Of a stretch of DNA of 64,000 nucleotides, positions 2,552 through 60,329 are shown in pieces (position 1 is the stretch's first letter; the number at the start of each line of letters is the position of its first letter). Source of the stretch: Heterodontus francisci (lineage: Eukaryota); assembly GCF_036365525.1 (NCBI RefSeq), contig NC_090409.1:21338437-21402436 (forward strand), in the 5' to 3' direction. The notes under the pieces were generated by a model. The model was not told where the DNA came from. It ran no database searches and saw only the letters and a program-made list of their open reading frames with translations. Position numbers and translations under genes: made by a program.

Positions 2552-2559
2552 ACTTCAGA

Positions 2560-5464: not shown

Positions 5465-6215
5465 TTTGCCTCTGAATAATAACGGTCTGGGTTCAACTCC
5501 CATTCTGGGACGACAGCACAAAAATCAAGGCTGACATTCCAGTGCAGCACTGAAGAAGTGCTGCCCTGTCGGAAATGCCATCTCTCACATGAGATGTTAA
5601 ACTGATGCCCGGTCTTCCTTCGCAGGTGAACGTAAATTCCCCAAGCCACAATTTCAAAGAACAGTTAGGGAGCTATCCTCGTCCTCCTGGTCAATATTTA
5701 TCCCTCAACCAGATGATCCAGTCATTATCATATTGTTTTTAATGAGAGTTTGCTGCACACATATTGGCTGCCAGATCTCCTACTTTATTAACTGGCCTAC
5801 AGTTCAGAACTACTGTATTGCCCGCAAACGCTTTGAAACATCCATTGGTCATAGAGAGATACAGTACTGAAACAGGCCCTTCGGCCCACCGAGCCTGTGC
5901 TGACCAGCAATCACCTACTTATAGTAACCCTACATTAAGCCCATATTCCCTACAACAGCCCCACCTCCCCTCAATTCTCCTACTACCGACCTACAGCAGG
6001 AGCAATTTACACTAGCCAATTTACCTATCAACCTGCAAGTCTTTGGCTGTGGGAGGAAACTGGAGCACCCAGTAGAAACCCAGGCGGTCGCAGGGAAAAC
6101 TTGAAAACTCCGCACAGGCTGTATTCAGAACAGAACCCAGTTCACTGGAGCTGTGAAGCTACAGTGCTAACCGCTGCGCCGCCTTGTGCCACAACAGCTT
6201 TATATAAATGGAAGC
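5465..6215 (+). mobile_element. Deu-domain SINE (SacSINE1-like), split by an HE1-like SINE
   Basis: gggttcaactccc B box; gctgacattccagtgcagcactga; atgagatgttaaac; tatttatccctcaacc; tail resumes at ~6195 tatataaatg. Confidence 0.75.
5852..6190 (-). mobile_element. HE1-like SINE, older variant
   Basis: Same head and tail as the 2214 copy, more diverged. Confidence 0.85.
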
Positions 6216-6864
6216 ATTCACTTGTTTCTATTTACTCCTACTCTGACCTTCCTGCCCTCGACCAGCTGAAGAGCTGCAATGAAGCTCCATGTCAGCTAGA
6301 GAAGCAGCACCTGATCTTTCGATTATGCACGTTGTAGATTTCTCGACTCAACATTGAGCTCCACAATTTCAGATTGTAATCACTGCCCCAATGTGTTTAT
6401 GTATCTTCGTGGTATTATGTTGTTCCCTCTGTTTTTGCTTTTGCATGGTTACTGTTCTTATACTGATATTCCTCCTCCCTAGATACATGTTTTGCTTCTT
6501 TCCTTTTTTTCCCATTACCACTCCCTTTTGCCTAGTACCATGAACGTTTTGTTATTTAATCAATCCTGCCTAACACTCCATTACAAACTGTCCATTTGCT
6601 TCTTTTTCCCTTCCTCGCCCTTTTACTTGCTGAAATACTATTCCAATTTTTTCTGTTATGATGTAAGATCTTCAACCTGAACCTTTAACTCTCCACAGAT
6701 GCTTCCGGACCAGCTGAATTTTTTCCAGCATTATCTCTTATTTCCAGTTTCCAGCATATGCAGTAGTTTGCTTTTGTTCACCACTATGTTCTGCTTTTCG
6801 CTCCTTAGACAATATCTTATGCACACTGCCAAACTGTCATTTGTACTTCTCTGTGCTTGCCTAC

Positions 6865-6900
6865 CTGTATCTTTAAGACTCTGGCGCAGATTCTCCAGAC
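6865..6900 (-). CDS. 36-nt micro-exon GLENLRQSLKDT
   Basis: tttgcttcatttttag|gtctggagaatctgcgccagagtcttaaagatacag|gtaggc. Confidence 0.88.
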
Positions 6901-9900
6901 CTAAAAATGAAGCAAATCGAATCTGTCTGCAATTGACTTCGGCTAATTGACGATTCGATCAACGGTTCACAAATGGTTCACAAATGTTTCCCCGCATTCT
7001 GTTTCATTTTTTGTCACAGATGTGTATATCAGAGTCGAAAGTGGAAGAAAAAAATGTATAAACAACTTCAGTATTTGTCGCGAAATCTAAATTTGTGGTC
7101 GGCTGTATAAAGAGTGGTCTGTGCAATTTCCTCTGATTTGCATCCCCTTAAATGTCCAATTTCATGCCAGCTTTTTTTGATTAGATTAGATTAGAGATAC
7201 AGCATTGAAACAGGCCCTTCGGCCCACCGAGTCTGTGCCGACCATCAACCACCCATTTATACTAATCCTACACTAATCCCATATTCCTACCAAACATCCC
7301 CATCTGTCCCTATATTTCCCTACCACCTACCTATACTAGTGACAATTTACCTACCAACCAGCAAGTCTTTTGGCTTGTGGGAGGAAACCGGAGCACCCGG
7401 AGAAAACCCACGCAGACACAGGGAGAACTTGCAAACTCCACACAGGCAGTACCCAGAATTGAATCCGGGTCCCTGGAGCTGTGAGGCTGCAATGCTAAAC
7501 ACTGCGCCACTGTGCCAGCTCTATTGGTATTATGAGATAGGTATGTTTGACAATCCCAAGATGGAAAATTAAAGTGCAATGGGAAAGCATACAGCAATTC
7601 CAACCTCCGTTAACACGAATCCACGGCCCCTAATAAGTAAATACCTATCACTGAAGGGAGGACCGATTGAGAACTGAAACCTGAACATCAGTCATATTGC
7701 AAAATAAAACACCTGGTAACTTGTAACATATTTGAGGGGTGATGACAATCGTGTTCAGCCTCTGTTATAACTTCCATTGCTTAACTAGAAGAGCTGTTTT
7801 ACAGACTGTGGGCCCACATTTAAGACATATCCTGTCCTCTCGCAATGGAAGTTGCACATGGAACTGCTTCCCCTCTGTGGTATATGTAACCTGAACTTTG
7901 AGTTCATTCCATTACCTTTATCCTTCATCTGCAGCCGTTCCTCTGTATAAATAGAGCATGGCATGAATTGATCTGTTAAACCCACTTTACATAAATAAGA
8001 GAAGGAAAGAAATAGAAAAAGAAAGAACAAAATTAAAATCCAAGAAACAAACAAAGATAGAAACAAAGAAAAGAGCAAAAGAAACCCATTTATGTAGCTG
8101 ATTTCCCAATCTCTGGTTATTTCAAAGTCGATTGATCCATTGAAGAACATTTTGGAGAGTTGCCACTTTTGTAAAGTAGGAAACGCGGCAGCCAACTTGC
8201 ACCCGGCGTGGTCCCTCAAAAAGCAATGCGATATTTGATAAGGCAGTCTTCGATTGATTTTGATTGAGAGATATATGCATACTGACCAAAACACTGGAAA
8301 GAACTCCACATCAGTATAATGCTTAGTGCAAAACATGGCATCTCAGAATGTGTGGCTCGCTTTCAGTATTTCAGTGGATTTTAAGCCTGGATTTAGAGTG
8401 CAATTGTCTTGATGGTTAATTTTGGCTCAGAGACGAGGAAGACCTACCTACGATATCAAGATAATTTGCAGCAGTGCAGCAACAAATTGATTCTAAACTT
8501 GCTAACAAACAGCTCAGCTGATCATGCCTTCGGTGAGTTAAGCTATGGAGAGCTGTCATAAATTCGAAGCATATCTACTGCATACAAGCTTATGAAGATA
8601 ATATACACAGTCTTACGAGAATGCATCTTGGTTTGTAAAAAGTTACGTCACATATATGTTTTAATTCGAATTGGGAAAGGAGGCCTCCGCATTTAGGAAC
8701 AGCTTGTTATGTGTAGCGCCTGGAAAGGTATAATGTAGCTGATTTTTCATTGATGTTCATATCATTGTAGCACGAAACAGTGCAGAGGAAACCTGTTTGG
8801 GATATCGTGGTTATGCTGGTCGTTTCAAGGTGAAATTCAATTCTTCCCGCTCCCCTGCTCCTTATCCATTGGCCTGCACTTGCTTCTCCAGTGCATCGAA
8901 TTCTCTTTAAAAAGTTACTATTGCATCTACTTCCAGCACCCATTTATGCAATGCATTCCAGATCACAATCAGTCGCTGCATAAATAAAAACTGCCCATCA
9001 TGTCACTGGTCCTTTTTGCTGATTATCTTAATTCCTTTGTTTTCAGGTTACTGACAACTTCGGCACAGCAAACAGTTTAAATTGTGTAACATGGATTTTT
9101 GTTCAGAAAAAAAAGAGCCTCAGAGTAAAATACGCTGCAGTCCATGACTCGGGTCTTCAAACCGATTATACTACCCATCGCTTTTTCGACCTTTTTTCCT
9201 GCATCTGCAGTTGGTAAACCTTGCAGACTGAGGTGCACAGAGTGGTTGTGAAAGAGTGTTTCGTAAGCAGAATGCTAAATTCAGCGGAGAGCAATTCGAG
9301 TATATAGGAAACAGAACATTCAAGTTCCTTTCCGTTTGAGGCCAACAAAGTCTGGGGCAGAAAATTAAAGCTAGACAACTGCTTGTGAAACTGGAATGCA
9401 CCACTTCTTGCCACTATTGTTAATTTTGTTCAGTGTGTTAGTTTATGATTCACAAGTAAGGCACTGAGAGGTGTTTTACAGCACATTAAGGTCACACCTT
9501 GTAGGTTAATCACCTGATTGACAACAAATGTAAGCGTGCTCAGATCAGCTCAAAGCTCTAAAATATAATTTAATTTTCCTCTCAATCCTCACCGAGATCG
9601 CTGACCTGTTTTTCGAGATTTTCGACTTCTGGAGAAAGAAAAGGAGATAACGATCAGACCTCCAAGTGAATAAACTCCAAGTTAATAAATTACACCCTTT
9701 GAACAAAAGTCTTTCGGTGCATTTCTTTAAACAAACTTATTTGTTTTCTAAGTCTTCACAAAACACAACGTTTGAATTGTATATTGCATTCGCCTCCTCT
9801 TATACAGTCATGAAAAGTCAATGCAACTGACTGCCCGTGGGAGATTATGACATTTGGCTCCTGCATTAGTGATACAAGCCCCAACAGTCTTACCATCATC

Positions 9901-12900
9901 TGAACCTGAATCCTATCATGATGACTAGAGTGATAGCACTGACTTCCTAGATAGTACCATCTGGATAACAGCACCCAAGAAACAACACACCAGTGAGATC
10001 AAGAGCTGCATGTATTTTGCAATAGCGACTAAGACAGAATTCTACCACAAATCGTCATCAAAGCACAAGGTGATGAGGTCTGATTTTCGATTCATGCTCA
10101 TCGAGATACGAAGGAAAATATAGGCTTGCATTCATACCGCTACGTTTAAGGCCTCAGGACATCCACATCCAAATGCCCTTTACAGCCATTCTTACCAAGT
10201 GCAGTTGCGCTTGCAAGTTAAAGGAACGTGCAGCAAGCTCCCACACATACAGTAATGTTCATAGTACAGTGAAAAGGGCAATATCAAGTTAACACACATG
10301 ATACAATGTGAATAATTTGCCTTACCCTCAACAAGGTGATTTTATCTTTGGCAATTAATTTAAATGGGTGTTAACGCAGTTGGAAACTCGTAATACTGCA
10401 AACTTTCCCTTCAACCATTGTCAGCCGAAATGAAAATTGGATAGGCTTTGCAGTAGGCAATTACATTGTAATCTTTAGTTATACTTGTTCTTAAATATTA
10501 ACCTCCTTCACCTTCAGTTTACTGACTCCTTGATGTTTGAAATGTCTGTAGCAGGAAGTGTATGTTGTACTTTCAATTTTAAGGCTATCCTTCTGCGCAC
10601 TTTATCAAAGCATCTCTGCAATGCTTTGCTAATGTGCACATTGTGACTCATATATGGTGGGTGGAGTTCGCTTGCAGATCAACAGTGAATGGGGGAATGG
10701 GCTCGAGGTGAAGAATAAAAGTCTTTTCTTATCGTGTTCTTATACTCACTCTCTCAATACAGATGCCATAATAATACCCTTTCCATTACCTACTTCTCTT
10801 TAAAAAAGAAAGACCATTAATTCTTGAGACAACACAAAAGAAAGTGGACGCTCTAATTCAGAATATAAACAAAATGTGCTGGAAATGCACAACAGATCAG
10901 GTAACATTATATATAGAGAAACGTAGTTAGCATTTCATATCTATGAACTCTCTTTAGAATTGGAAGTTGGACAAGTTCACAGTCAGGGTAAGGGGAGGGG
11001 AAGAATGAACAAAAAGCAAGGTCTTTGATATTGCGTAATGGAGTAAAGATTAAATAACGCCGCAGACAGAAGGAGATGACAATGAAACAAATAAAGAATC
11101 AAAACGTGTTTAGGGATTGTGGAAATGGGAAAACAGATTGTTTCTTTAGAATGCAGTCCAAAAATGGCAGAGTGATGATTTTCTGAAATTGTTCAACATA
11201 TTGTTGATCATATTTAATGGCATAGCAGGCTCGATGGGCTGAACTGCCTATTACTGCTCCTATGTTCCTATATTCCTAAAGAAAAACGCTTTTCTGGAGA
11301 GAAATGCACTCCAGTGAGGTGAAAGCTATAGAAAGTAATGTAGAAAAATTGTTGATCACTTTATGCCGCCTTTACCTTTCTCCTTTCTGCTCAGCTTTTG
11401 ATCTACATATAATTAATTGATAATGTTATTCCGATAATTGTAATTGCATAATGATTGTTGGTAATAATACTTACGCTGGAATGAACGCACTACTTTCTAA
11501 ATATATATAAAATTGATGTATTTAACCAGTCTCTGGTTCGACTCAGGGTTAAATCAAATCATTGTTTGTGTTTGTATAATCAGAAATAAGAACGATCTTT
11601 GAGGGTTAATGAAGATGCCTGTTTATCTGCTCCCACCGATCTACCAATCTAATGTCAACGTTCTCTGTAGGTGATAAGGGAGTATAACTTTAATTATGTC
11701 ACTAAAAAGATGGAATAATTGTTTATATCCGCTCCGTTGTTGAACATGAAATTGAGTGACAGAGAATTTACCACAAAGCAATAGGTCACCGTGTTCCATT
11801 CTTCATCAGGTATTTATCTAGCTTGGAGTATAATGTGAGGAAATGGGGAACTTTCCACTTTGATAGGAAGAATAGGAAAGCGAAGTATATATTATTTTTA
11901 GTGGTGAGAGATTTTATTGGTATGCAGCGTGATTTTGGTCGCCTTATACGCCAATCACCGAAAGTTACCAATTAGAACGCAAATAGTCTGTTCACCTGTA
12001 TAACGTGCAGATGGTAGAATAAGATTAAGGAAGTCTTCCTACAATTATGTAAGGCTCTGGTGAGATCACACATATATTACTGTTTTCAGCTTCGGTCACA
12101 TTACTTAAGGAGGGTATACTTGCCTCAGAGAGAGTGCAGTGAATTATCACCAAATTGATTCCTGGATTGAGAGACCTGTCCTTTGACGACAGTTGAGTAG
12201 GATGGGCCTATACTCTTAGGAGTTTAAAAGAATGTGGGTTCATCACATTTAAATGCATAAAATTCATACCTTGAGCGGGTGGATGCTAAGAGTTTGTTTC
12301 TCCTGGTTGGAGAGTCCAGAAGTGGTTGTCCTTGTCTCAGGGTAACAGGTCGCCACTTAAGACAGAGCTGAGGAATAATGATGTTTGTGACACGTTGGAT
12401 ACCACGGATTCTCAGTCGTTGTGTATATTCAACACTGAAATTAATACATTTCAGGACACTTAGGGAATCAAGGGATGTGGTATATGGCTGGAAAGCTGAG
12501 TTGAGATAGATGAGCAGCCATAATCCCATTCAATGAGGGACCAGGCTCGAGGGCTGCATCTCATTTCCAGCTCCTAATTCGTATGTCCCCATGTTTCCCT
12601 TGAAGGCATCTATTGTATTAGCCCAGGTTCTACATTCTAACACTTGTGGATCATAGAATCATTACAGTACAGATTTTTTTCTGAATTTATTATTTGATTT
12701 ATTAGTGAGTATATTAATTTTATTGCCCTTAGCATCTGTCCTTTCCCCACCTAATTTTTGCCACATCTAGCCGAGCAAATTTATTCAGTACTTTAAAGAA
12801 AGATAATGGGCACCAACTGGCCTTCCCTTTACTGGAGAAAAGAACTCATTCCTATTCAGCTTCTCCTGACAGACATCATGCGATCATCGATTGGTACCGA

Positions 12901-15900
12901 CAGTGACCGTTACAGCGTGCTAATATTCGTAAATACGGGGAAAATTGAATGTGCATAGAATTGGAGAGAGAATAAAATGCATTTTGAACAAGTTCTGCAA
13001 TGGTTCGTTCAGCCTCCTTTTGTGCAGTTGGCTTCTTCGTTCCATGGTAAATTCAAGCTTTCAGCAATATGCGAAATGATTTCACTCATCTTTCAAATTT
13101 ACATTTTGCCACTGTATGAGATTTGTTCAGGCAAAATTATTGGCATGAAAATCGATTTAGTTGGATCAGTAGTGTGGAAGACATATTCATTGTTTCAGGA
13201 GATAAAGGAATGTATTAATGAGATGAATAAATAGGCTTAGCATTCAGTGGTAATACTATCTTTTGATACTCGTGCAATAATGGGCGACATCGAATAATTC
13301 CTTTCCATTTAATTTAAGAGCCAGCATGTGTAACCTGCGAGTAAATGGACACCGGTCATTTTACACTATCAACCAATGTTAAACAACACCCTCCTTCATT
13401 TGAGTAACTTGATCGGTACCAAATAAGTCCTGTTCACCTGAATCTCGGCAACTTTCCTTCAAAGCATTACATTCTGGAACAAAATAATAGGAATAACTTA
13501 AAGATACTGTAGTAATATCCGAGTAGCCTGGATGAGCAATACAGACAACCTGGCTTCAAATCCTGGCATTTGAAATTTGAGAATTTGAATTCCATTTCGA
13601 AATTTAAAATATTTAGTATTCATAGAAGTGACCATGAAGGCACAGGGCTGCAGCAAAACCCAAATGTTTTCACGAATGTCCTTATGGTAAGGAAAGCTGT
13701 CGTTCTTAACAGTTATATGGTAGACCCTCAAAAAAGAGCTTTTGTGACTCAGGATAACTTGGCAGGGCAATAAATACTCGCCTTTCAGGCGACGCCCGAC
13801 TCCAAGTTGTTGTCTTAATAGGAGTGCGCATGTCGTTGCAAATTGACTTCCTGGTACATGCACTCGAGGCTCACCTGATCTCCATCCGTGAATTATACTT
13901 CATTGACATGAATACCTTATTTATACCTAGTCTAAATTCTTTACAATGCCTGAAGCATCAACCCCTTGCCATCGGATGGAGGGAGACCAGATGTTCACGT
14001 CAATGTGAGCATCACCAGAGGGCAAACTGGGTAACATTGAACTTGTGTGGGAAAGTAAAACAGGCAGAAATGCTTTTTGCCATCAGTTTCAGTGCATGTG
14101 CCACATTCAAGAGAAGTGAATATAGGACGCAATGTGAAATGGACGATCAGTCCAATGTCACCTGCTGTGCTTCAGTATCCATCTTGTCAAATTTCATGCA
14201 TATTGCTGGGTATTCACGCTGAAGTGTATAAAGATGATGACAATAACTCACTTCCACTAATACAATGATCAGACTAATATCAAAACCTTCTGAACGCCCC
14301 ATACAATCTAATGAACACATATAATTGCATCGAATTTGCATCTCAGGTAAGAGTGATTCAACATATGTGGTCTATGCCAGTTTTCATGATTGTCACGATC
14401 CTCTTCCCATACTGCTTACCTTACCATATGACCTTTAATTGTTTCCTCCATCATATAGTTATGCAGCTTCCCCATAAATGCATCTACGTTATTCCAGTTG
14501 AAGGAGTGAAAAATTCTACACTTCAACTCACCTCTAGGTAAAGAGGTTAAAAGTGAATTTCTTATTACATTTAGTAGGTACTGTCTGATATTCATGAGCA
14601 CTAATATTATACTCCATCACAAGTGGAATTATCTTCCCTATATCGACCCCCTCCAAGACTAATATTAAATACATCGATTAGGGCACCGATCTGGCATGAC
14701 TTTCCCAGAAAACATAGAGCAGCCTGCACAATCATACTTGGCAGTTGTACATTCTTAGTAATGGCAGCAGCCTTGTGCAAGCATTATGAAGATTCTGCAG
14801 TACACATACACTTTTTTTTTGAACAGACAGCCAACGACCTTGCTCAACAATATGCAATGAAGAATACAGTGTGCAAAGTAGAAGGCACAATGAAATGTAC
14901 TTTTTTTACCCAACGAACAGACAATTCCGCAATGACTGTGTTTACCTTTCTCGTTCTTTTCTATAGCGGCCTCTATTTGGATTGTACAGAAAAACATTAA
15001 AAAACAATGAAATCCACTGCTAGCATCAGTCAACCCTTCATGTTGCTGGCGTCCAGATAGCTATTCTCCTCCACTTTTTGTATATCCCCTACTTCCATGC
15101 TTCTAACATTGATGGTCATGCCATCAGCTACCGCTGAGAGAAGCTCTGTAATCCTTCCATGAATATGGACAAATCTCCGCATCCCGAGCTTCCTTTAAGA
15201 TTTTTTTCAACAATAAAAGTAAGACGAGAAAGATAAGTAGGCTTTTAGACTATTTAAAACCACATCCTTGTGCAAAACGTTGTTCAGATGACCGAATATC
15301 TCATGTGGTCGTACGTTCTTTATAAATGAATATTGCTATATTGCAGATAATAATACCTCAAGTTACAGGACAGCTTACAGTGAGGGGCACCATTTGCTTT
15401 AGCTTTAATGAGGTAAGATTGTTCTATAACTCTAGCTTCACAACTATATAACCCACTGCTGACCTGTATTTGTCAGATTTTCCTTCAATGCCTGGATATC
15501 TGTAATTGCAAAGCAAAACTCTCAGAACTCTCTATCGAATATAATTCCACATTTCCTTTCTCACTTATCGGGCTAGATGCAGATAGTTTTAAGATTGGGC
15601 ACTGGTGTTGAACACTGTGCATCCAGCCCAATTTGCTGTTCTGTCGATTTGGAAGGAAAATACTTGACAGTACCCATTCTACACCATCACACTAAGGTAC
15701 CAACTTCCCCACGATTTTCTTAGCAGCTTAGAGAGAGATGGGACAAAGACCGTGTACAGTACCTTTGATGACCCCAGGCCGTACTGAAGCATCTCACAAC
15801 TAATTAAATACTTGGTTATCTTTAAACTCGACTAACCCTGGCAAGCCTCCTACTTAGTACACTGCGTAAAATCTGGTCATCCAAAACATTTTTCCCCTGT

Positions 15901-18900
15901 CTTAAATCATACCATGTCCTATTGTGCCATCACGTCTGTGCCCAAGGCCTGCTTTATACCACGCTACAATTTATTCTCCATTGAAAGGAATTATAACCTC
16001 TGATGTGAGAATCAAGAATCTTACAATTAGAGATAATCTTTTCAGAAGGCAAATCAGGAAACACGTTTCCATACAGAGTGCCAGAAAAGTAGGGAGTTCT
16101 CTCCTGCAAATATCTATGAACGGTGGAACAATTAAACATTGGCGTTACTGCATTTTGTTTTTTGTTAGGTAAGCGTGTTAAGTGAACTGAAACCAAGGCA
16201 GGTGGATGTATTTGAAGTGCATATTATCCATGATCTGACTAAATGGCGGAGAAAAGTCCAGGAGCTGAATGGTTTACTTCTGTTGCGATCTTCTAGAGGT
16301 TGCGGACAGATTGTTTTCGAGGTTGTACACGATTATGGCATATTTAGATAGAGTAGACACAGAAGAGCTATTCTATTAACTAATGTTCCAAGTACTACGG
16401 TGACACCAATTTAAAGTTTTATGTAAAAAGATATGGAGTGGGGGGCGGGGGGGGGGGGGGGGGTGGTGGGGGGGGGGGGTGTGGTGATATGAGGAAGAAA
16501 ATGATTACACAGCGAGTGGCAATGACCTAGAAACCGATTACTACGAGGATGGTGGGAGCAAAGACGATCAATGATTTCAAAAGAAAGTTGGATGCGCCAT
16601 TGAGGGATATAAACGTGCAGAGGTACGGAGTTAGAACAGAGAAATGGGACATACTGGACTGCTCCACAGAGAGCTGGTATGGACTCGATGGACGGAATAG
16701 CCTTGTTCACTTTCGTAATGAAAACAATTTCTGATGCAAAAACTAGTCAAGTCAGGGGAAAAAGGATGAATTTCAAAGGTAGCCCATTATATCTAGAACA
16801 TTATATTTTACAGAAGAATTACCTGTAAACAGCAAGTTACACTCAAAATTTCAGTCATTAGTGAGCCTATTTCATAGATGTCCACACACTCGAATGTCCT
16901 AGGCCCCAAAACACATATCAGGTCCTAAATATGCGCACATCAACATAAACAATCATGGCCCGAGGGAGGCAACAATTCACACCATATATAGATTCTTTAA
17001 TTCTGAAAATTAATATATCTATACATATAAACATCATCCATGAAAATTAAGCACAGTTAGTTGAAGAACACGAGATCGTGAAAACATTGCATTTTGCATT
17101 GCGAAATACTGTTGCAGTAAAAATGCAATCAAAATTTCAGAAAACGTAGCGAATGTTTCAGTGAGAATAAATTTTAAACCAAAAATGTTCTTTCTTCGGG
17201 ACTAAAATAATGTATTTAACAGTAAAGTCGATTCAGAATCACACACTTACCCTTCTCTTTCTGACTCAGTTGTTGTTCTAATAAATAACAAGGTTTACAA
17301 AGAAAAATAATAAAATTAAAGAACTGCACAGAAATTTATGTACAACGATTTTAGGGAAGAAGCCCATTACTGGAGACGCGTCCATCAATTTCATGCACAT
17401 GGCTGAAATGAAAGGCACCCATGATCATAGTGAGACTTGTGTAAATTTGGGGCAATTTTAACTTTGAGTGTTGGTGTCAGTTACATGAAATCGAATGCTA
17501 TATCGATTATATGCCATGCCAGATTTTCCAATGATTGTCGTAAAAAAGGAAATAAAGCACGACCGATAAATCATAGAATCATGACGGCACAGAAGGAGCA
17601 CATTTGGTCTATCGATTCCATGACAGATCTCCGTACAGCAATCCAGTCAGTCCCACTCCCCTGCTCGATCGCTGCAGCCCTGTAAGCTTATTTCCGACAA
17701 GTGCCCATTAAATTTCCTTTTTAAATCATTGATTGCCTCCACTGCCACCACCTTCGTGAGCAGCAGGTTTCAGGTCGTTAGTACCCGCTATGGAATAAAG
17801 TTCTTCCACCTATTCCCCCAGCATCTTTTTCCCGAATGATAAATCCTAGTGCTTGTACAAACTGGTCAGAAACATGTACACCTCTATCAAATCTCTCCTC
17901 ATTCTCCTTTGTTCCAAGGAGCAAAACCCCACCTTTCACGGCTGTGTATCACTTAGCATTTTAATCGTCCTCTTTACATTATTCAAAGCTGTACATTTGA
18001 CCCAGTTTCTTCAATGGAAAGTACAATTGCGAGGGGTGCAGAGCTGGTGGACCATTCCTTATCACACACTGAACACTATTACATAAAGGTATATGCAAAC
18101 GATTTGTTACAGCACCCGAAATAAAACAGTAGGTAGTGAATCGACAATACATGGTTAACAGTCAAGGATGGGGGCGAGGTTGCAAAAGAAGATGTGTTTC
18201 CAGCCCACAAACGTATCATCTTACCTATGTCTTGCAGACTCTCCTTCAGGGTGTCTAGCTCTTCAGAAAATCAGGAAATAGAACAGTGAGCTCGCATCCA
18301 GAAAGATTTGGATAACATGTAGACTTGGGTTGAGAGGTGGCAAGTAACATTCATGCCACAGCCGTGCAAGACAATAACTATTTCAGAAAGAGAGACATTA
18401 TCCTTTCTTACTCCTTGACAATCAATGGCATTGCTATGACCAAATTCCCCCTGATCAATGACTTAAGGTCACCATGCCCAGAAGCATAGCTGGCCCAGCC
18501 AACCAAATACTGTGGCTACCAGAGCAGGTTAGAGGCTGCAACAATTGACTCACTGCAAAGACGTTCCACCATATCCAAGGCTAGAGTCAGGATAATGATG
18601 GAATATCCCCACCTGTCTGCTTGAGTGCAGCTCCAATGATTCAGGACAAAGCTTTGCACCCCATCTCTTCTCTTCTCTCCCAGGCAGTCCCTCGGAAACG
18701 AGGATGGCTTTCTTCCACTCCAGGGTTGTGGGTTCTTAGGTGACTGAATGGTGCATATTCTGGATCCTTTCACTCTGCCACAGGTTGGGAACGTGATGTT
18801 TGGTGAGGCGAGTAAATGGGATGCACGAAATTGCGAATGCTCTTTTGGCTGTTTGCACTTGGTCGCTGCTTAGGCATGTGAACTTTGTTCGAACTGATTG

Positions 18901-21900: not shown

Positions 21901-24900
21901 AATCACCTTCAACCCCATACTTCCGTATTTTCTGCAATAGCCTACCGTGGGGAACCTTATCAAACGCCTTACTGAAATCCATATACACCACATCCACGGC
22001 TTTACCCTCATCCACCTGTTTGGTCACCTTCTCGAAAAACTCAATAAGGTTTGTGAGGCACGACCTACCTTTCACAAAACCGTGCTGACTATCGCAAATG
22101 AACTTATTCTTTTCAAGATGATTATAAATCCTGTCTCTTATAACCTTTTCCAACATTTTACCCACAACCGAAGTAAGGCTCACAGGTCTATAATTACCAG
22201 GGCTGTCTCTACTCCCCTTCTTGAACAAGGGGACAACATTTGCTATCCTCCAGTCCTCCGGCACTACTCCTGTCGACAATGACGACTTGAAGATCAACAA
22301 CAACGGCTCTGCAATCTCCTCCCTGGCTTCCCAGAGAATCCTATGATAAATCCCATCTGGCCCAGGGGACTTATCTATTTTCACTCTTTCCAAAATTGCT
22401 AACACCTCCTCCTTGTGAATCTCAATCCCATCTAGCCTAGTAGGCTGTATCTCAGTAATCTCCTCGGCAACATTTTCTTTCTCTACTGTAAATACTGACG
22501 AAAAATATTCATTTAACGCTTCCCCTATCTCCTCTGATTCCGCACACAACTTCCCACTACTATCCTTGATTGGCCCTGTTCTAACTCTTATCATTCGTTT
22601 ATTCCTGATATACCTATAGAAAGCCTTAGGGTTTTCTTTGATCCTATCCGCCAATGACTTCTCGTGTCCTCTCCTTGCTCTTCTTAGCCCTCCCTTTAGA
22701 TCCTTCCTGGCTAGCTTGTAACTCTCAAGCGCCCTAACTGAGCCTTCACGTCTCATCCTAACATAAGCCGCCCTCTTCCTCTTGACAAGCGCTTCAACTT
22801 CTTGAGTAAACCACGGCTCCCTTGCTCGACAACTTCCTCCCTGCCTGACAGGTACATACTTATCAAGGACACGCATTAGCTGCTCCTTGAATAAGCTCCA
22901 CATTTCGTTTGTGCCCATCCCCTGCAGTTTCCTTCCCCATCCTACACATCCTAAATCTTGCCTAATCGCGTCATAATTTCCTTTCCCCCAGCTATAATTC
23001 TTGCCCTGCGGTATATACCTGTCCCTGCCCATCGCTAAGGTAAACCTAACCGAATTGTGATCACTATCGCCAAAGTGCTCACCTACATCTAAATCGAACA
23101 CCTGGCCGGGTTCATTACCCAGTACCAAATCCAATGTGGCATCGCCCCTGGTTGGCCTGTCCACATACTGTGTCAGAAAACCCTCCTGCACACACTGGAC
23201 AAAAACAGACCCATCTAAAGTACTCGAACTATAGTATTTCCAGTCAATATTTGGAAAGTTAAAGTCCCCCATAACCACTACCCTGTTACTCTCGCTCCTG
23301 TCGAGAATCATCTTCGCTATCCTTTCCTCTACATCTCTGGAACTATTCGGAGGTCTATAGAAAACTCCCAACAGGGTGACTTCTCCTCTCCTGTTTCTAA
23401 CCTCGGCCCATACTACCTCAGTAGACGAGTCCTCAAACGTCCTTTCTGCCGCTGTAATACTTTCCTTGATTAACAATGCCACACCCCCCCCCCCCCCCTC
23501 TTTTACCCTCTTCTCTGTTCTTTCTGAAACATCTAAATCCCGGAACCTGCAACATCCATTCCTGCCCCTGCTCTACCCATGTCTCCGAAATGGCCACAAC
23601 ATCAGGATCCCAGGTACCAACCCATGCTGCAAGCTCACCCACCTTATTCCGGATGCTCCTGGCGTTGAAGTAGACACACTTTAAACCAAGTTCTTGCTTG
23701 CCAGTGCAAGGTTAATACACAAATAAGTATCCACGGAGTTTGTGTAATATATGAGCAAGATGGTGGATTGTTTAACTGACAGTAAGCAAATAGTAGGAAT
23801 AAACGGGGAATTTCCAATTCCAGGCTTTAACTGGTGCAGTGTTGCAAGGATTAGTATGGGGACCTCAACGATTTACAATCTATATTAATGACTGAGACGA
23901 AGATGTCTATAGTAATGTATATAAGCTTGCTGACGATTCTGCCTATTTAAAGCTAGATGGGAATGTAAGCTGTGAGGAGGGCACTCGGAGGCTGCAAAGA
24001 GCTACAACAGGATGACTAAATGTGCAACATGGTGCCGGCTTAAGTATAATGTGGGGAAGTGTGAGCTTATTCACGATATTAATAAGAATAGAAAGGGAGA
24101 CTATTTTTAAAGGCTCGAAACCTCGAAAGTTTGATGCTCAGAGGGACTTGGGAATACTTGTACAGGAAACACATAATGTTAGTGTACAGTTACAACAAGC
24201 AGTTTGGAAGGCCAATGGCATGTTAGCCTTCATTACAAGGGGCGTAGAGTGCAGAAATGAATAGGTCTTGGCACAATTCTACAAGGCTTTGATGAGAGCA
24301 ATCTGGGGTACTATGTGTAGTTTTTATTTGCATATGTAAGGAAGGATATACTTGCATATGATGCGGTAGAATGGAGGTTCACTACCCTGGGATAAGAGCT
24401 TTGTCTATCGTTGAGGAAGTGAGTAAGCTGGGTTTATATTCTCCAGCGTTTACACAAATAAAATGATAAAAGGGGACCTTATTGAAATATGGAAGATTCC
24501 GAAGGGCCGAGACAAGGTAGACACTGAAAGGTGTCTCCATCGGCTGGGATATGGTGGCACATACTCGGAATGATGTGCTAATCATTTAGGAATGAGATGA
24601 TGAGATACTTCTGTAATTAAAGGGCTGTGAACCTTTATAATTCTCTACTGTACAGCGTTGTGCATGCTTCATCGTTGAATATACTTAAGGCAGAGATAAA
24701 CAGGGAATCAAGGGATATTAGCATCTGCCGGGAAAGTGGGGTTGAGACCCAAAGAGCAGCCATGAGCGTACTGAATGACGCAACATGATTCAACTGGCTG
24801 TGTGATCTACCCCTGCTCTTATTTCATATATTCTAATGTTCTTAACCCCAGTGTGAATATTGTTCAGGTCATGTTGCTTGTGAGCACTGACTGATTCATT

Positions 24901-27900
24901 ATATAAGGGGTTTTGAATGGAACTGAACACTGTGCAACTACGAACAAACATCTCCACTTTGCATGACAGAATGATAAATGAGTTAGAGTCTATTGTATGT
25001 TGTGGGAGATAGCTCAAAAATCTTCACCACATTTGTGCAGAACTATTGCACAACTTTCCTCCTGAACAAGTTGTCTGTGAATTTAAGTGTATGTCCTCTT
25101 TTCCTTGACTCCCTTCCATTACAAATCTATTTGACCCCCACACAGTCCTTTCAAAATCCTAGCAACGTCAATTGAATCACGATTTACATTTTCATATTCC
25201 AGATAATACATGCCTAGCTTATGTACTTTTTCCACTTAATTTGTCCTTCAGAGGCCTGGTAACACTGTCGTGCTTGGCTCCTTCTAAGGCAAAAATAGCC
25301 TTTCTAGATTGTCCTGCAAAGAAGTATTTACAAGACCACTGATTTAGTCTAACAAGGGCTCTAGATAGCTGCAGCAAAACTTCCTCCTGTTTATATTCCA
25401 GTCCTCGAAATATATATATAACAGGCATTTTGATTATTTTGTGCACCTGGCAACCCACAATCGCTTTGGACATCAGCTGATCTTCGATTGTCAGCACTTT
25501 GATATATTCATAACTATTCCTTTTTGGTAAATGTGGATGAATTCACACTTAGCTGCCTCGAAAGCCATCTGTCACAGTTGTGATCACTACTTAAATCTAT
25601 TAATTTCTCTTTCTAATATTATTTTCTAGCCTGCACTACTTAGTTTGGTGCCAATACCTGTTTCACTGTCAAACGTGGATCTCTGTTGCGTTGCTGAGTC
25701 CCCGCCCAGATCCGTGTTGAACACCATTAATCACGTTCTTATACTAGAGTGAATAACCTTTATGCCTATTATTTGTGCCTCACCTCCTAACTAATCATCT
25801 AAAGCAGCAGTAACATTCCTAAAATTCTATGAGATTTAATTTTAGCAATTGCATTGTATATGAATCTTTATCGAACAAATTATGGATGTCCATATCAACT
25901 ACTTGCATAGACATTCCCCTGTCTGCTACTTTACATGACCAAACTTTAGAAATCCATTTTTGCTCTCTCTAATCATCTCAAATTCTGAACGTGTTTAGTC
26001 AAAATGTGTCTCGTTATACATTACAATTACTTCTCCACAGAGATATTAGATTAGTAGGCCTGTATTTACTTTATTTATACTGCCTTGAGCATCTTAAATA
26101 TTTGAGTTGCAATTCATTTTTTCGGCTAAAGGGACAATTGCTGAATTTGAATGAATTGGAAGAGAATGACTAAAGCATCGTCAGATATCTCACATCCTCC
26201 TGTTCTGGCGACTTCCCAAACTTTAGTGCCATTATATATTTTTTTTTGTCTTTTGTGTATGTTAATATTAATGTGTTTCAGTCCTTGGTTCATTAATATT
26301 TTCAATGGAAAGTATTTTATCCTCTTCCTCCACTGCAAAGACTGACATAACATAACTATTCATCACGGTTGCCATTTCCTTATTTTCATGAGACATATCG
26401 CCCTCACCTGTTTGAAATGTTGAAATATTACCCTGACTTGGGTTCTTCCATGAAACGTTCAAAAACGTTTGTGTTGAAATTGATATTGCTGGCAAGATTT
26501 TTTTCGCATATCTAATTGCAGCTCTTGCTACCTTTCCGCTGGCCTATGATTATCCTTCTATGTCGCACGGTCCCTGGATGCAGACTGCCCTTTCACATAC
26601 TCCTTCCTCAGGTGTGATGTTATTCTTGAGCTCCTTGACAGGAATTGAAAATGCACAGCAATGTCACAACTGAATTGATTTTGATGTGGTTTGCTGCACT
26701 CACCTTTCAGTTTCTGATTGAGCGTCATTTCTATTGAAAGCACATTCAAAGAATAAGTGCATATTAGTGTATGACAGATGAGCAAACATGTCTCCCAACA
26801 TGATCCGATTCGTCATAGAAAAAAGCTGAAAATAATTAAATGTGAAAATTGGATGTAATAATTGATAAATTGAAAGTGGCAGGACAAATTGATATCCATG
26901 TTTTAAAATTTTATGCCATCCTAGGCTTCATAAAGAGAGGCATATGGAATCGAAGCACGGACGTTATGATAAACTCTCATAATTCACTGGTTAAGTCCAG
27001 TTGAAGTATTGTGCCCATTTCTGAAAACCACATTTTAAGAAGTACTTGGAGAGGGTGCATAGATTTACTGAAGCACTACCAGGGATGAGGGACTCCAGTC
27101 ATAATAGTTTAAAATTGGTCAGTAGAAAGGCACGAAAGATGGGAGGAATAATTCCTTTATTCAGGTGTTTGATGGTGTGTGACAGCGGCAAACATTACAG
27201 ATTATGCAGAAATATCCGATAAATGTGTTTGAAGTAGATTTATATGCAGGGTACAAGTAGGGAAGGACACTGATATTATGTTGTTGTTACATCAATAAAG
27301 AGATGGGCATATATATGTGGGAGGTATAGCCTTCGTTGGTGCTGCATTTCAATGTTCTGTGTTACAAGTGAAGTTTCTTTCTTCACATTCGGTACCCAAG
27401 CATGATTTAGGATTTACCACAGCTTAGAGAGGGATATGTGGAAGCCTGATAGCCCTGCAGTGCAAAGTATATGGAATGCCAGATACAGAAGAGGAGCAAC
27501 GTGTCTTGTGTGGTAGCGCAAAACTAGTGGCATTGCATTGGTCGACCCATATCCGAGCCAAGCGATATGCAGTATTAATGGAATGATGAGGCTATGACGA
27601 TCATGGCAATTATGATGATAATTACATAGAATTATATAAACTTCTCAGTCAATGTTTATGCACCACCCAAGGCTCAATTCAACCCTCTTCAATGAACTCT
27701 ATAAGCATATCATAAGAATCGTTTCGCACTCATGTGTTTATGTAATTTTCCATTAGCTGCAGCATGAATTACTTCAAATTGAATACATTTTCACATTCTT
27801 TCGCCTCTGTGGATAAATAAGTTTCTCGCTAATTATCTGTTGCATTTCTTGTGGCTTCCTTAAATATGTGACATTTAGCTTTGGACAGCCCACAAGTAGA

Positions 27901-30900
27901 CACATTTTCTCTGCTGTTATTCTATTACACTCTTTAATTATTTAAATACCTTTATCAGGTCATCCCTCAGACATCTCTGCTTCGAGGTCAGTGCAACATT
28001 TTACAGTAAATTCCTTTTGTACCGTTGCAGTGTCTCAATGTCATTTTTTTTAAGATGGTGGTCATAACTGTGAATTGTATTCCACGCATGCTGTAACCAA
28101 CATTTTATGCAACTTAACAATAACTAAGAATGATGAGGATAATGGCGATGATGGGCACAATGCTGATCATCATATAATTATAGAACCTTTACTGCGGAAG
28201 TGGATCATTCATACGGTCCTGTTTGTGCCTACTCTTTTGAGAAAGCTGTCCAGTTTAGGCCCACGCCCCACTTTTCCCCATAGCCCTGCAGATATGTTCA
28301 CTTCAACCACCTTTCAAAGATGTCTAAGGAATCTGATTTACCACCCTTTCAGCTAATGCATCCCAAATCATAATGGCTCTCTCTTTCCAACAATTACTTT
28401 TCAGTTCTCCGCTGGTTCATTTCTAAATTATTTTAATCTATCATGTCTGCTTAAGGCTAAACTTGATAAAAGTAAGATTTTGTCCCAACTTTCTCTTCAA
28501 GATCCAAATGTATTTTGAATAGCTCTATTAGGTGACCAGTTAACCTATTATGCTATATGGGGTACCATTGCAGCTTCTGCCCATGGTATCCCTGATATCA
28601 TCCAGGTAACCTTCCTCTGTTCCCTCTCTCAGGCTTTTACATTCTTCCTAAAGTGTAATGGCTATAATTGGACACAATATTTGAAGCCGAGGCATAATAA
28701 CAATATGTACATTTTTTAGCATTATCTCATTATTTCATCCATTGCAGCTGGTTACAAAGCCAAGTTTTCTTAAATTCTTCCTGAACTTGCAGTGCCACAT
28801 TCAAAGATTTGCAAATACGCACCCTAGGTCTCTCTGCTCTTGAACCTAACCCCCTCAAAATAGTGCCATTTAGATTAAACTTCCTCTACATGTGTTTCTT
28901 CCAACGTGCAGCACATTAGTCATATGCACTTTAGATTGCATGTATTATGTGTCTGCCCATTTCAGCGGTTTATCTACATCCTTCTGAAATCTACCATCAT
29001 CTTGTGCATGATTTAGCACCGGTCCAAGTTTTGTAATATTGCCAAAATTTGAAACCTCCATCTCATACCTAAGCCAGGCCATTAATATCATGGAGTCATA
29101 CAGTTATAGCATGGTTACAGTGCAGAATATGGCCATTCGGTATGCCGTGCCTTTAGAAGAGCTGGCCAGCAAGTCCCATCCCCGCCCACCCAGTCGCCAT
29201 AGCCTTGCATCTTTTACCTCTCAGCCTTTCATCCAATTTCCTTTTAATAGACACCGATTCAACCTGGCTTCACCATAGTTTCAGACAGTGCATTCCAGTT
29301 CCTGCACACTGACAGCAGAATAACGTTTTCATCATGGTGCCCATGGTTCTTTAGCCAATCATCTTATTCGTTGTGCATTGGTAATCGTACACTTACACCA
29401 AAGGAAACTTTTTTTCCTTTCTATCGACTCTACCTTAAAGTTTAGATTATGAAAACATCTATCAAATCTCCTCTCTACCTCCTCTTATCCAAGGAAACCA
29501 CGCAGTTTTACCAATCGTTTTAGCTAGAGTTCCTTATTCCCGGAGTAATTCTCGGAAATCGTTTCTGCAACCTATCTAAAGCCTCCACGCCCTTTCTTAT
29601 GTGTGGTGAAACCAATTGGACACCATGCTCCTGTTGAGACCGAGGATTGTAGAAGGTTTACCATAACCACCTTGCTTTGCACTCTATGCCTCGAATTAAA
29701 AAGCACATATGTCATTTTTAACCATATTCTCAACCTGCACTGCCACCTTCGACGATTTGGGCACAGGCAGCCACCAGGTGTCTCTGTTCCTGCACCCCTC
29801 TTTAGAATTCTGTAGTTTAACATATAATGTGGCTCCTCCTTCTCACCTACAAAAATGTATCAATTCACATGTCTTTGCATTAGACGTCATCCGCCACGTG
29901 TCCGCTCATTCCACTAGTCGGTGTATGCGTCTTGAAGTCATAACATGACTCCTCACAAGTTATAATACTTATAGGTTTTGTGCTGTCTAATTTTTTGTAT
30001 TTATTCATGGGATGTGAACATCGTTTGCAAGCCCATCCCTAATTGCCTTTAGGAAAGTGGTGGTGAGCAGTCTATGGGATGTTGGTGCGCCCACAGTACT
30101 CTTTAAAGTTGTTACAAGTTTTTGACCCAGAGATAATGAAGGAACTGCAATATAATTCAGAGTCAGGATGATGTATCTCTTGGAAAAAGTGCCCTGCATA
30201 TATAAAAAATAAAAGCTAATATGTGCATTATGTTAAGAATAATAACGATGATGATGTTATAGAATGAGAATGATGCTGGCGTTAATTGTGATGTTCCTGT
30301 TTGTCAGACTGATTGTGAGCATATGACAGTATTGAGAATTGCTATATTGATGATGATGAGGAGGAGGAGAAGGAAGAGGAACAGGTGGAGGAGCATTATG
30401 GTATTACTGTTCTGCATGCTGATGATTTAGAAGCTTTAGAAACAAAACTGTGACAAGTATCACTCTACAACAGGAAAAAAGAACATTTTTGTTGAAGGAA
30501 ATTGTGTAATGTAACAAATATGAATAACTGGAGTTACTAAACAAAAACCAATCCACCATGAACACTCACCCAATTGCTGGAATTCTCCCTTCATTTTCTC
30601 CAATTCTGTGAAAAGCAACAAGAAAAGGAAAAGATAAATCGCAATATTGTAGCTTGGTGCCAAGAAGAGCAGAGCAGACTAGGAGCACACAGCCAAATTG
30701 GGCTGAATATTACCAGCCCACTGACATCGTAGTCGTGATGGGAGGCTCGAGAAAATGCCTCCGGGAGAGGCCAACAAAGGGTCTTGGGGCCTTGACGCTT
30801 TTGAAGCTCCACCCCATATTACCGGCGATGCTGAGGCCTTTTGGCGCCTCCGTCCCGCCCACCCCTCGTCACTCGGTGACCAGACCGATATTTCAACATG

Positions 30901-33900
30901 TCAATGGCTGTTAATGGACAATTTAATGCCTTACCTGCTGTCGCCGGTCATCCCACTCTGATATTCTGGTCAGTTCCTGGGACTCTTACATCACCGTCTG
31001 GAGATCCAATGCGGGACACTGGTGGGAAGGGGGCAGGAGATATTTTTTCAGGGTGGGAGGGAGGGAGGATTGGACTCAAACTAATGTGATTGCTGGGAGG
31101 AATGTTGGGAAAGGGTAAAATTATAATTTTGTGACATTTGTGGGATGAAGGTCAGGCACACAATGTAAGCATTTTTGTGGTGCACAGGGCAAGGAATGAG
31201 TGCAATCTGATGCAGGGCGGCAGAGGCGTTGGAAGCATGATTATCTTATTTTTTAATGAATATTGTTGAGCTTCCCTTTATAAATTCAAATTATGTTGAA
31301 GGGCTGGAAGTTCTTTAAGAATTGCGCTGGCGCCAGTGCCTGTGCAGTGCCGCTGGACTCCATTGCCCAGATTAGAGTGCCCTCCCACTCACCATCATCA
31401 GGGCGGGGTGGACACTGAAAGAGGGATGAACTTGAAAAGTGGATGTTGGAATTAACAAAGAAACCCATTTATAAAGAAGCAGAGGTTGAAGTTAGCCGAC
31501 AATGCAAGTTAGGATGCCCCAAAACGCAGAAATTAAAATGGTGTGAGAACCACATTTACCTCTTAGTTTCTCAAGGCTCATTTCATCTGTTCAAAAATAT
31601 ACAAAATTAAAATCTTTCAAAAAGCACGGGCTATAGCACCTCCCTTTCACATTCGTCCTGGTGCAAATTGCAGCTGCAGAAATATCAGATATTGTATTGT
31701 TAGGCACAAGGAAAAGGAAAGAACGAACAATAAAAGGGAAGGAATCAAGGTGAAAAATGTGATTTATAAATGACCGTTCACCACTTCAAGACAGCCAATG
31801 CAGTACGCTTGAAATGCAGTTACCCTTGCAAAGTAGGAAACACAGCACCAAATTGACGCATTGAAATGTCCTACAAAAAACAATGACATCATGATCAGAT
31901 GATCTACCTGTGTGATATTGATGGCAAATGCTTATTAGTGCATGAAACAGGGAGTCTCCCTTCCTATTCTTCAAATAGTCCCATTGAATTGGTTACCCGA
32001 CAGGGCAGATGGGTCTTAATATAAATGTCTCATCTAAAATATGTCACCTCCGACGTTGCAGCACCACTGTTATGAATGATTCAGCCTATATTAACGGCTC
32101 AAGTCACTGGAGCACGGTTCAAAGCCACAAATTTCTGCTTCAGGTTTGAAACAGCTGCTTGTATAAGGTATAACGCACCCTAACTACTGGTATTCAAAAA
32201 AGTAGATTGATACATCTTAGCTTATGGTCCTGAGCTTTCTGGCTGGGTGACCATGTTTTGCATTGGAGTTAGAGGAAATGGACATCGGCTGTGCTTCCCC
32301 ATCGATCATGCTTCCCAAATTAAGCATTGCATGTGCCTGCTTTTCGGTGCATTCTGGAAGTTTGATAGCAACTTTCGTGCCTACGCATAAGAAAAATTGC
32401 AGCAGGTACTTCAAGGAAGCGTATTAAAGCAATAAAACAATAAAGCAATAGCCGAGTGCCTCTCGTGCTCAGATTGCAGCCCGAGTAATGACGGTGTAAT
32501 TCTTCTGTACTCCTCTATTTAAGACATTTACATCGGCTTGTTCCTCTTTCAACAGCTTTCTATCGGGCTCTCACTCCTTTAATCTGTTTCAGAAGCTATG
32601 TAATGTAAATAACAGAGTAACACCGAAGTCGAACTATTTGAGGGACTGATAAGGGGAAAGAGAATGGGGATATTAAGCATCCAAAGGAGCGTCATGTTAA
32701 ACCTGAAAAAAATAGGTGATAATTATTCCCGATGCAAAGACATAATGATAATGATTCTGCAACAGTTTGAGTTTTTTGTTGATGTTGTTTTGTTTTACCT
32801 GCCTTTACCTTTTCTTCTGTTCATATGAAAAAAACAAACAAACTGCCATGTATTGCTCATGCAAATACAGAGTTGGACATAAGTGTCGGCGGTGAAGTAA
32901 CAAAGCTCACTGCGAACTTCGAAGAAAGCTGCACATAAAGATATATTGAGCTCTGTGGCGCAGATGTGCCCTTTCTTGCGCTCATTTGAATTTGGCGCAA
33001 CATCAAGCAAAGTTTTGAAATCACTGAAGCAGTGATGCCATTAATCAGCGGAAGTAACCAATTGTGCCAGCGTCACCGACATGCGATTATAGATGCTCAT
33101 ATCGATACACATTGTATTAAAGTAGAAGCTAAAATATGTTTAACCAACGTTTTAAAATGCATTATTTTGAAAATGTATGGAATTTCGTATCATAGTGGAG
33201 GAATGTGCTGGGAAGCAAATAGCACATTACATTTTCAGGGCCAGTGATGATTGTTAACAAAAATCATTAACGTAGAATGCCCTTTAAAAATCCAGCTACA
33301 CTTCCTGCAATGTATAACCTTTACCTTTTACCATGATAGCAAGATAGTTTTCGTTGGTTCAATTATTTCTAATTTATTGCCTTATGGGGGGATCCTCAAC
33401 AGCGCATCCTCTGGAGAACCATGGACTCACTGACAACAACTTCTCTGCATTTAACTGTGTACCAGAGGACACCAGAAATAGTGAGAGTTAAGAGCCAAAA
33501 CATACCCATTAAGGTGAAGGGTAGCACCAACAGGTCCAAGGGATGTGGAGGATTGGATCAGAAAAAAAAATAAAGCTATGGTAGATTCAGAGCGCCAGAA
33601 ATAGCGGAGGCACTAGGGGAGTACAGAGAGCGTAGGGGAATACTAAAAAAGTAATTAGGAGAGTGAAGAGGCGATATGAAAAAACACTGACAGTCAAGAT
33701 AAAGGAAAATCCTAAGGCTTTTTGTAAGTATATTAAGGGCAGGAGGATAACCAGGGAAAGAGTAGGGCCCATTAGGGGCCAAAGTGGCAATCTGTGTGTG
33801 GAGCCGGAGGACATAGGTAAGGTTTTAAAAGATTACTTTTCATTTGTTTTCAATATGGAGAAGGATGATGTAGGTGTAGAGATCAGGGAGGGGAATTGTG

Positions 33901-60322: not shown

Positions 60323-60329
60323 TAACTGC

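Follow-up and report, generated by a model that had tools for sequence, protein, structure and literature searches.

A predicted megabase gene of 27- and 36-nucleotide exons in Heterodontus francisci, putatively encoding a coiled-coil rod with a terminal B30.2 domain

INTRODUCTION

What kind of protein is built from a long series of exons of only 27 and 36 nucleotides (nt), and is its length set by splicing or by duplication of the DNA? This question is raised by a 64,000-nt stretch of the 6.0-Gb Heterodontus francisci genome (contig G000:C39:21,338,437-21,402,436; hereafter the window), in which pairs of such micro-exons encode a putative coiled-coil module of 21 residues, or three heptads. 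A preliminary description of the window proposed that skipping a pair of exons would shorten the resulting rod in register, that skipping a single exon would shift its heptad phase, and that splicing could therefore encode both properties. Here, we followed the exons beyond the window and found that they likely represent the middle part of one predicted 1.16-Mb gene that ends in a B30.2/SPRY exon, the window accounting for about 5% of the array. The number of modules appears to change by duplication of the DNA.

RESULTS

An outward walk from the window revealed that the micro-exons continue on a single strand over 1.16 Mb. The final catalogue, for which the thresholds were set by hand and in which a few exons may be missed or false, comprises 249 micro-exons (159 of 27 nt, 83 of 36 nt, and 7 of other sizes), and the introns between them have a median length of 2.6 kb and range from 105 nt to 41 kb. 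Joined together, the exons contain no stop in 2,483 codons, while the plus-strand control yielded one match. The array closes with an exon that carries a SPRY domain (Pfam, E = 3 × 10−15) and the stop codon, so that the conceptual protein has 2,656 residues, 2,483 of which form the micro-exon rod. Only two B30.2 exons lie within 1.46 Mb; one closes this array and the other closes an upstream paralogue. Across the 1.16 Mb, we found no other terminal coding exon, no other stop, and no strand switch.

To assess selection, we compared neighboring paralogous exons (45 exons of three classes) in a tandem block at extended coordinates 140 to 400 kb, where "extended" values, i.e., those above 64,000, prolong the window numbering along the contig. 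Nonsynonymous divergence (pN) was 0.061 and synonymous divergence (pS) 0.296, giving a pN/pS of 0.21 (Fisher's P = 4 × 10−21 for exon pairs that are not independent), and introns of neighboring copies diverged by 0.27 to 0.32. Synonymous divergence is close to that of the introns and nonsynonymous divergence is far lower; the predicted exons are under purifying selection. The joined protein can also be aligned, from the rod through the B30.2 domain, with annotated proteins of a skate (P0175; 36.5% over 326 columns, E = 6 × 10−65), a catshark (P0193; 28.8% over 601 columns), and a chimaera (P0094; 30% over 576 columns), and it is likewise collinear, from the rod into the B30.2 domain, with an annotated electric ray protein.

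Within the window, all eight exon peptides quoted in the preliminary description were placed on the minus strand, AG/GT flanked and in phase 1-1 with the first codon split. The strict 27/36 alternation claimed for ten exons between positions 6865 and 31586 holds in that span; however, the span contains 12 phase-1 exons, as both exons of module 3 had been overlooked (Table 1), and the alternation fails beyond it, where the order upstream in the window is 36, 27, 27, 36, 18, and then 27. Gene-wide, 158 of 248 transitions alternate, compared with 106 ± 7 in shuffles. Nor are Leu16 and Lys19 invariant, as had been stated: the overlooked module carries Ile16 and Asn19, and the two residues occur in 41/45 and 39/45 pure modules of the gene, respectively. 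The 27-nt exon of this module is the lowest-scoring window exon in our trained model (16.6 bits). Scoring of the window by splice signals and composition, without training, returned 18 rows on the minus strand, including two 54-nt tandem-repeat artifacts and one nested acceptor, versus 1 row on the plus strand. The trained model, applied to 1.46 Mb with a cutoff of >16 bits, gave 202 minus-strand matches versus 1 plus-strand match, a contrast that is partly circular since the model was trained on minus-strand matches.

The reading of the 36+27-nt pair as a 21-residue, three-heptad module was borne out along the gene. The spacing between successive 36-nt exons is 21 residues in 45 of 82 intervals, followed by 48 (16 intervals), 39 (9 intervals), 30 (6 intervals), and other values (6 intervals), and 78 of the 83 exons of 36 nt are directly succeeded by one of 27 nt, while no two 36-nt exons are adjacent. 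The 3′ half of the gene, which includes the window, holds 37 of the 45 pure modules. In these modules, hydrophobic residues (LIVMF) occupy positions 2 (43/45), 5 (43/45), 9 (41/45), and 16 (44/45); the core proposed earlier thus stands at these four positions but not at its fifth, position 12 (13/45). Position 19 is Lys or Arg in 42/45. With positions 2, 9, and 16 taken as a, residue g1 is Asp or Glu in 39/45 and e6 is Lys or Arg in 33/45, while g15 is Lys or Arg in 19/45 and e20 is Asp or Glu in 25/45. Complementary g/e pairs are a recognized sign of parallel homo-oligomers, and the g1/e6 and g15/e20 pairs would fit such an assembly. The single-chain model of the skate homologue P0175 consists of two long helices with a mean predicted local distance difference test (pLDDT) score of 45.

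The exons also appear freely joinable. Since 227 of the 249 exons finish in G and the majority start with AA, AG, or AT, joining two exons mostly creates a Glu or Asp codon (83% over all possible exon pairings) and never a stop. The 48-residue spacing reflects a five-exon unit in which the module is joined by a short helical exon, one rich in Gly, Ser, and Asp, and a further 27-nt exon. The composition of the Gly/Ser/Asp-rich exons suggests that hinges likely divide the rod into segments, and where hinge-like exons interrupt the rod, the heptad register carries less weight. We had also considered a parity rule, according to which extra 27-nt exons come in pairs whose 18 residues equal a heptad plus a hendecad. 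This rule fell with the recognition of an overlooked 27-nt class ending in A, present in about 15 tandem copies, which yields 48-residue units with a hinge-like exon.

To clarify how the length of the array changes, we judged the paralogy of exons from their intron flanks only. Seventy of the 249 exons had a downstream paralogue, which was of the same size in 68 cases. Of the 13 offsets within the 3′ half, 12 equaled exactly two or four exons (21 or 42 residues), corresponding to about five events, and in the upstream 5′ block the frequent offsets were 48 residues (31/70) and 69 residues (13/70). One module pair is 95% identical across 3 kb, and others are 79 to 83% identical. At extended coordinates 140,000 to 400,000 (L018-L064), the five-exon, 48-residue unit occurs in about 15 tandem copies, mostly 8 to 19 kb apart, in which one exon class closes with a Cys codon plus A at the donor A/GTAAGT. 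Judged by these offsets, the unit of DNA duplication is the whole 21-residue module or the 48-residue, five-exon unit. Module number does vary, as had been anticipated, and the evidence points to genomic duplication of whole modules; as the offsets are whole modules, the register is preserved at the level of DNA duplication.

The arithmetic behind the splicing proposal is correct: the loss of 9 or 12 residues would rotate the core stripe by approximately 206 or 154 degrees, respectively, and the loss of 21 residues by 0 degrees. Pairwise skipping itself found no counterpart, as none of the 10 distinct internal isoform gaps in homologues (9, 9, 9, 12, 11, 8, 8, 7, 6, and 23 residues) equaled 21 residues, in a test that is weak since it used predicted models of four other homologous genes. 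Annotated isoform models are usually based on RNA junctions, and the gaps weigh against pairwise skipping in the giant gene. Most likely, the heptad register is maintained by selection on duplications rather than by coordinated splicing; single-exon skips, which are frame-safe, are likely tolerated at a low level. That splicing encodes both rod length and register we regard as very doubtful.

The profile of the terminal domain matches the B30.2 structures of butyrophilins (BTN) and TRIM proteins over 160 positions, the closest solved structure being the BTN3A1 B30.2 domain (E = 3 × 10−33), compared with 4 × 10−28 for TRIM7. Pfam PRY gave no match in the terminal exon, although the SPRY and structure profiles support a C-terminal B30.2 (PRY-SPRY) domain, and SPRY is the sole Pfam family in seven annotated homologues. 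A CD23-like C-type-lectin neck, considered earlier, was abandoned because the array closes with a SPRY exon; no direct lectin-domain search was made. Among the open reading frames in the unmasked third of the 122-kb 5′ gap, 94 of 97 were scanned (three crossed locus borders and were excluded) and contained no Ig, RING, or B-box Pfam match and one sub-cutoff match to a domain of unknown function. The repeat-masked two thirds or so were covered by tblastn, in which queries made of the N-terminal 260 residues of 9 butyrophilins and of 10 TRIM proteins matched 1.81 Mb only at B30.2 exons. Hydrophobic stretches above 690 kb, in a scan to 764 kb, resemble translations of pyrimidine-rich introns, and no CpG-island candidate exceeded the thresholds.

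In a quick tree of 37 B30.2 domains, hand-picked from approximately 290 fetched proteins, 13 coil-type rows fell on one side of a branch (Shimodaira-Hasegawa-like approximate likelihood ratio test [SH-aLRT], 100), opposite 15 TRIM, 7 butyrophilin, and 2 NLR domains. The coil-type branch holds all four genes of the contig, its named members are all cartilaginous fishes, and its domains do not group with butyrophilin B30.2. In this tree, the B30.2 domains of the contig group with shark, ray, and chimaera proteins that are poorly annotated, away from both TRIMs and butyrophilins. The closest single-domain relatives in a 1.84-billion-entry library are chondrichthyan coil-plus-SPRY models with misleading names, and the clade members bear automatic TRIM-like names. 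No close full-length orthologue was found, the top identity being 52% to an unnamed 129-residue piece. Only 4 of 129 scored B30.2 matches in the genome are clade members. Most of the matches cluster on contig C29, likely a TRIM/butyrophilin-rich chromosome, separate from the clade on C39. Further clusters of long SPRY-plus-coil chordate proteins (1,277 to 1,802 residues) in the Atlas are leads, and the present data do not restrict the taxonomic range of the family. A literature search by title and start of abstract, covering neither supplements nor most subscription journals, returned no description of a chondrichthyan coil-B30.2 family, and the clade is apparently undescribed.

Three paralogues of the predicted gene lie on the same contig. 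The B30.2 exon of paralogue 2 lies upstream of the main gene, some 122 kb away from the first micro-exon of the latter; the array of this paralogue extends at least 430 kb further. Its two 5′-most candidate exons have Met at codon 2, like the first exon of the main gene, which hints at a translation start inside the array. Residues 1 to 40 of the catshark model P0184 consist of 9-residue repeats, each with an initial Met, which is consistent with tandem 27-nt exons serving as alternative starts. Paralogues 3 and 4 have closely similar 3′ micro-exon series. Coil-type micro-exons were also seen on the plus strand at L180 (22.90 Mb) and L158 (23.00 Mb), 2.6 to 2.7 Mb ahead of the 25.64-Mb B30.2 exon; they belong either to a still larger gene or to a further paralogue, head-to-head with paralogue 2.

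Repeats account for several discarded calls. An 88-bp tandem repeat of 2.4 copies at 63044 to 63257 holds a perfect donor motif and imitates 54-nt exons, two of which were removed from the catalogue. We also removed 51-nt calls derived from a long interspersed nuclear element (LINE), a 27-mer that is a dispersed repeat (27 matches, 15 on the plus strand), and overlapping alternatives and low scorers (24 on the list, a few later readmitted). A young-looking LINE-type insertion, which from its reverse-transcriptase motifs we take to be CR1-like, occupies approximately 20900 to 23750 inside the intron of 8.4 kb that separates module 1 from module 2, and a second copy lies on the opposite strand near 46300 to 48650.

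Table 1. Predicted exons and genes; positions refer to the window unless the contig (G000:C39) or a locus (L) is given
Feature	Position	Strand	Remark
Predicted gene	1..64000	-	Covers the entire window; both gene ends outside
5′-most micro-exon found	~G000:C39:22,038,472	-	In-frame ATG at codon 2, possible start
Terminal B30.2/SPRY exon	L084:4700-5220 (~G000:C39:20,873,136-20,873,656)	-	With stop codon
Micro-exon, 36 nt	50220..50255	-	Phase 1; upstream of the span described earlier
Micro-exon, 27 nt	49500..49526	-	
Micro-exon, 27 nt	37841..37867	-	Second consecutive 27; alternation broken
Micro-exon, 36 nt	36041..36076	-	
Micro-exon, 18 nt	32799..32816	-	Alternation broken
Micro-exon, 27 nt	31560..31586	-	Opens the alternating run
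Module 1, 36 nt	30570..30605	-	
Module 1, 27 nt	26704..26730	-	
Module 2, 36 nt	18225..18260	-	
Module 2, 27 nt	17251..17277	-	
Module 3, 36 nt	15464..15499	-	Absent from preliminary description
Module 3, 27 nt	14946..14972	-	Absent from preliminary description; I16, N19
Module 4, 36 nt	13438..13473	-	
Module 4, 27 nt	11376..11402	-	
Module 5, 36 nt	9593..9628	-	
Module 5, 27 nt	7916..7942	-	
Module 6, 36 nt	6865..6900	-	27-nt partner 2.8 kb past window start
Paralogue 2, array of 27/36/30-nt exons	G000:C39 22,160,826-22,592,503 (L126, L155, L161-L179)	-	
Paralogues 3 and 4, intact B30.2 exons	L147 25.64 Mb, L154 28.02 Mb	+	27/36 exons upstream

DISCUSSION

The sequence itself establishes the array of exons with its single open frame, the action of purifying selection, a SPRY exon at the end, three paralogues, and growth by duplication of modules; we consider the gene structure, a megabase array with a B30.2 end, well supported and very probably correct. 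Beyond that structure, we propose, with a probability of roughly 0.62, that the product is a soluble rod of about 2,480 residues, a hinged coiled coil that pairs with itself and bears a B30.2/SPRY domain at its tip, acting as a long spacer or tether. All exons would be joined into one transcript, and the rod would form a parallel homo-oligomer with a at 2, 9, and 16 and d at 5, 12, and 19, in which acidic g1 pairs with basic e6 and basic g15 with acidic e20. At a rise of about 1.5 Å per residue, the rod could, when completely stretched, measure as much as about 370 nm. The product would be soluble and cytoplasmic, and the B30.2 domain, which the rod would carry at one end and hold at a distance, would bind a partner. 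In the DNA, the rod has grown through tandem copies of either whole 21-residue modules or 48-residue, five-exon units.

Several observations weigh against this proposal. No transcript of the predicted gene has been seen; three same-sample runs over window positions 9000 to 16000 gave coverage on repeats only and on no exon, and are uninformative on expression. The 5′ gap yielded neither a first exon nor a promoter; a short-word tblastn search and an ATG-donor scan there returned only noise. The d positions are weak, position 12 being rarely hydrophobic and position 19 mostly basic, and a Fourier analysis of the whole rod (first catalogue) lacked a 3.5-residue peak (amplitude, 0.03), which is expected for a segmented rod yet is no proof of one. 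Two homologue models, P0094 and P0175, open with a hydrophobic stretch that may be a membrane anchor or an annotation artifact. Finally, annotated homologues are shorter (202 to 1,697 residues) and two of them, P0292 and P0297, lack B30.2, so shorter or split transcripts are possible.

The last point speaks for one of several rival explanations, which are not mutually exclusive, namely that the array is split among several shorter genes or transcripts, or consists in part of exon copies that are not used, instead of encoding one 2,656-residue protein. Introns of up to 41 kb could conceal promoters or poly(A) sites; however, the absence of any other terminal coding exon, stop, or strand change over 1.16 Mb, and purifying selection that extends to the 5′ tandem block, make this rather unlikely. 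We find it distinctly unlikely that the protein is a splice-tuned ruler, in which regulated skipping of 36+27 pairs sets in-register length and single skips switch register or stiffness, since the homologue isoform sets lack 21-residue gaps and DNA duplication already accounts for module number. Nevertheless, all exons are in phase 1-1, no exon pairing creates a stop, homologues carry many annotated isoforms, a long SPRY-plus-coil Atlas cluster is named "isoform X51" (a lead only), and the 36-to-27 introns, being shorter than the 27-to-36 introns (median, 1,650 versus 2,887 nt; P = 0.005, first catalogue), could couple the pair. An extended version, with an ancient megabase family in cartilaginous fishes whose approximately 250 interchangeable, frame-safe micro-exons form a ruler of up to about 370 nm with Glu/Asp salt bridges at the junctions, splicing setting length by pair skips and hinge position or register by single skips, and a B30.2 sensor held at a chosen distance, is improbable.

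The B30.2 domain invites two other explanations. The array might be the cytoplasmic tail of a membrane-anchored receptor of the butyrophilin or BG type, with Ig and transmembrane exons that were overlooked. Such a receptor would agree with the top structure match to BTN3A1, with the hydrophobic N termini of the two homologue models, and with the butyrophilin plan of small heptad exons ahead of a B30.2 exon, as far as it is set out in the available text of PMC4046983 and PMC8813856. It is highly unlikely given the lack of Ig matches in the 5′ gap (Pfam, unmasked third) and in 1.81 Mb (tblastn), the separation from the 7 butyrophilins in the quick tree, and the fact that the P0193, P0184, and P0178 models start directly in the coil. 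Alternatively, the rod may lend avidity and spacing to the B30.2 domain of a RING-less innate immune sensor or decoy, comparable to the coiled coil of TRIM5 or pyrin. Outside the clade, class IV TRIMs are indeed the closest by B30.2 sequence, the TRIM5-alpha B30.2 domain binds viral capsid (PMC3137616, in part), and rapid length change through duplication recalls BG tails (PMC4046983, in part); the failure to find RING or B-box domains (tblastn, 1.81 Mb) and the small size of the clade within the genome, unlike the big TRIM expansions, speak against a sensor, which we hold to be possible but unlikely.

The closest designs to the proposed tether are chicken BG tails and enterophilins. According to the available text of PMC5938342 and PMC4046983, chicken BG genes encode long coiled-coil tails in 21-nt split-codon exons, 13 to 36 per gene, with the true heptad lying across two exons; exon number differs among genes, and a soluble tail form ("zipper protein") affects actin-myosin. 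The preliminary description knew of no such split-module design elsewhere, which holds only in part, given that the BG heptad spans two 21-nt exons (PMC5938342, in part), although the three-heptad 36/27 version differs. Both systems have a long coiled-coil tail encoded by many tiny split-codon exons. In contrast to BG, with its one-heptad exons of 21 (at times 18 or 24) nt, its IgV and transmembrane segments, and no B30.2, the predicted gene has 36/27-nt exons, about seven times as many, and a B30.2 domain, no Ig was found, and none of the 249 catalogued exons is of 21 nt (one weak 21-nt candidate was discarded). Butyrophilins likewise place heptad repeats directly ahead of a terminal B30.2 domain (PMC8813856 and PMC12841164, in part) to which that of the predicted gene is strongly similar (BTN3A1), but they have few heptads and IgV-IgC and transmembrane segments, and their B30.2 lies outside the branch of the predicted gene.

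The enterophilins of the guinea pig are soluble and combine a long leucine zipper with a C-terminal B30.2 domain. They are compared here by architecture, the solubility of the shark product being presumed, and differ in being mammalian and much shorter. An interaction of enterophilin-1 with SNX1 is cited in a review (PMC13749957, in part). Class IV TRIMs (TRIM39/69, A33-like) share a coiled coil and a B30.2 domain of about 35 to 44% identity, whereas in the predicted gene no RING or B-box was found, the rod is >10 times longer, and the B30.2 is on a separate branch. The chondrichthyan coil-plus-SPRY models (for example, XP_042192744.1, XP_038668997.1, XP_055510696.1, and XP_069775384.1) share the B30.2 branch, a recognizable 12+9 module, and a collinear alignment and differ in being shorter and often fragmentary. 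By analogy with the BG "zipper protein" and with enterophilins, the rod would most likely serve as a spacer or tether; this does not imply membership in either family.

If the gene model is true, sharks, rays, and chimaeras share a conserved family of B30.2 proteins that are cut short in annotation and wrongly labeled TRIM, golgin, or trichohyalin. One of them, encoded by about 250 micro-exons spread across 1.16 Mb, would have a rod comparable in length to that of golgins. The "heptad exon" principle seen in the tails of BG and butyrophilins would then extend to a two-exon, three-heptad module that is itself the unit of duplication, and the predicted gene would offer a test case for how the spliceosome deals with hundreds of successive 27- to 36-nt exons and for the limits that register places on exon skipping.

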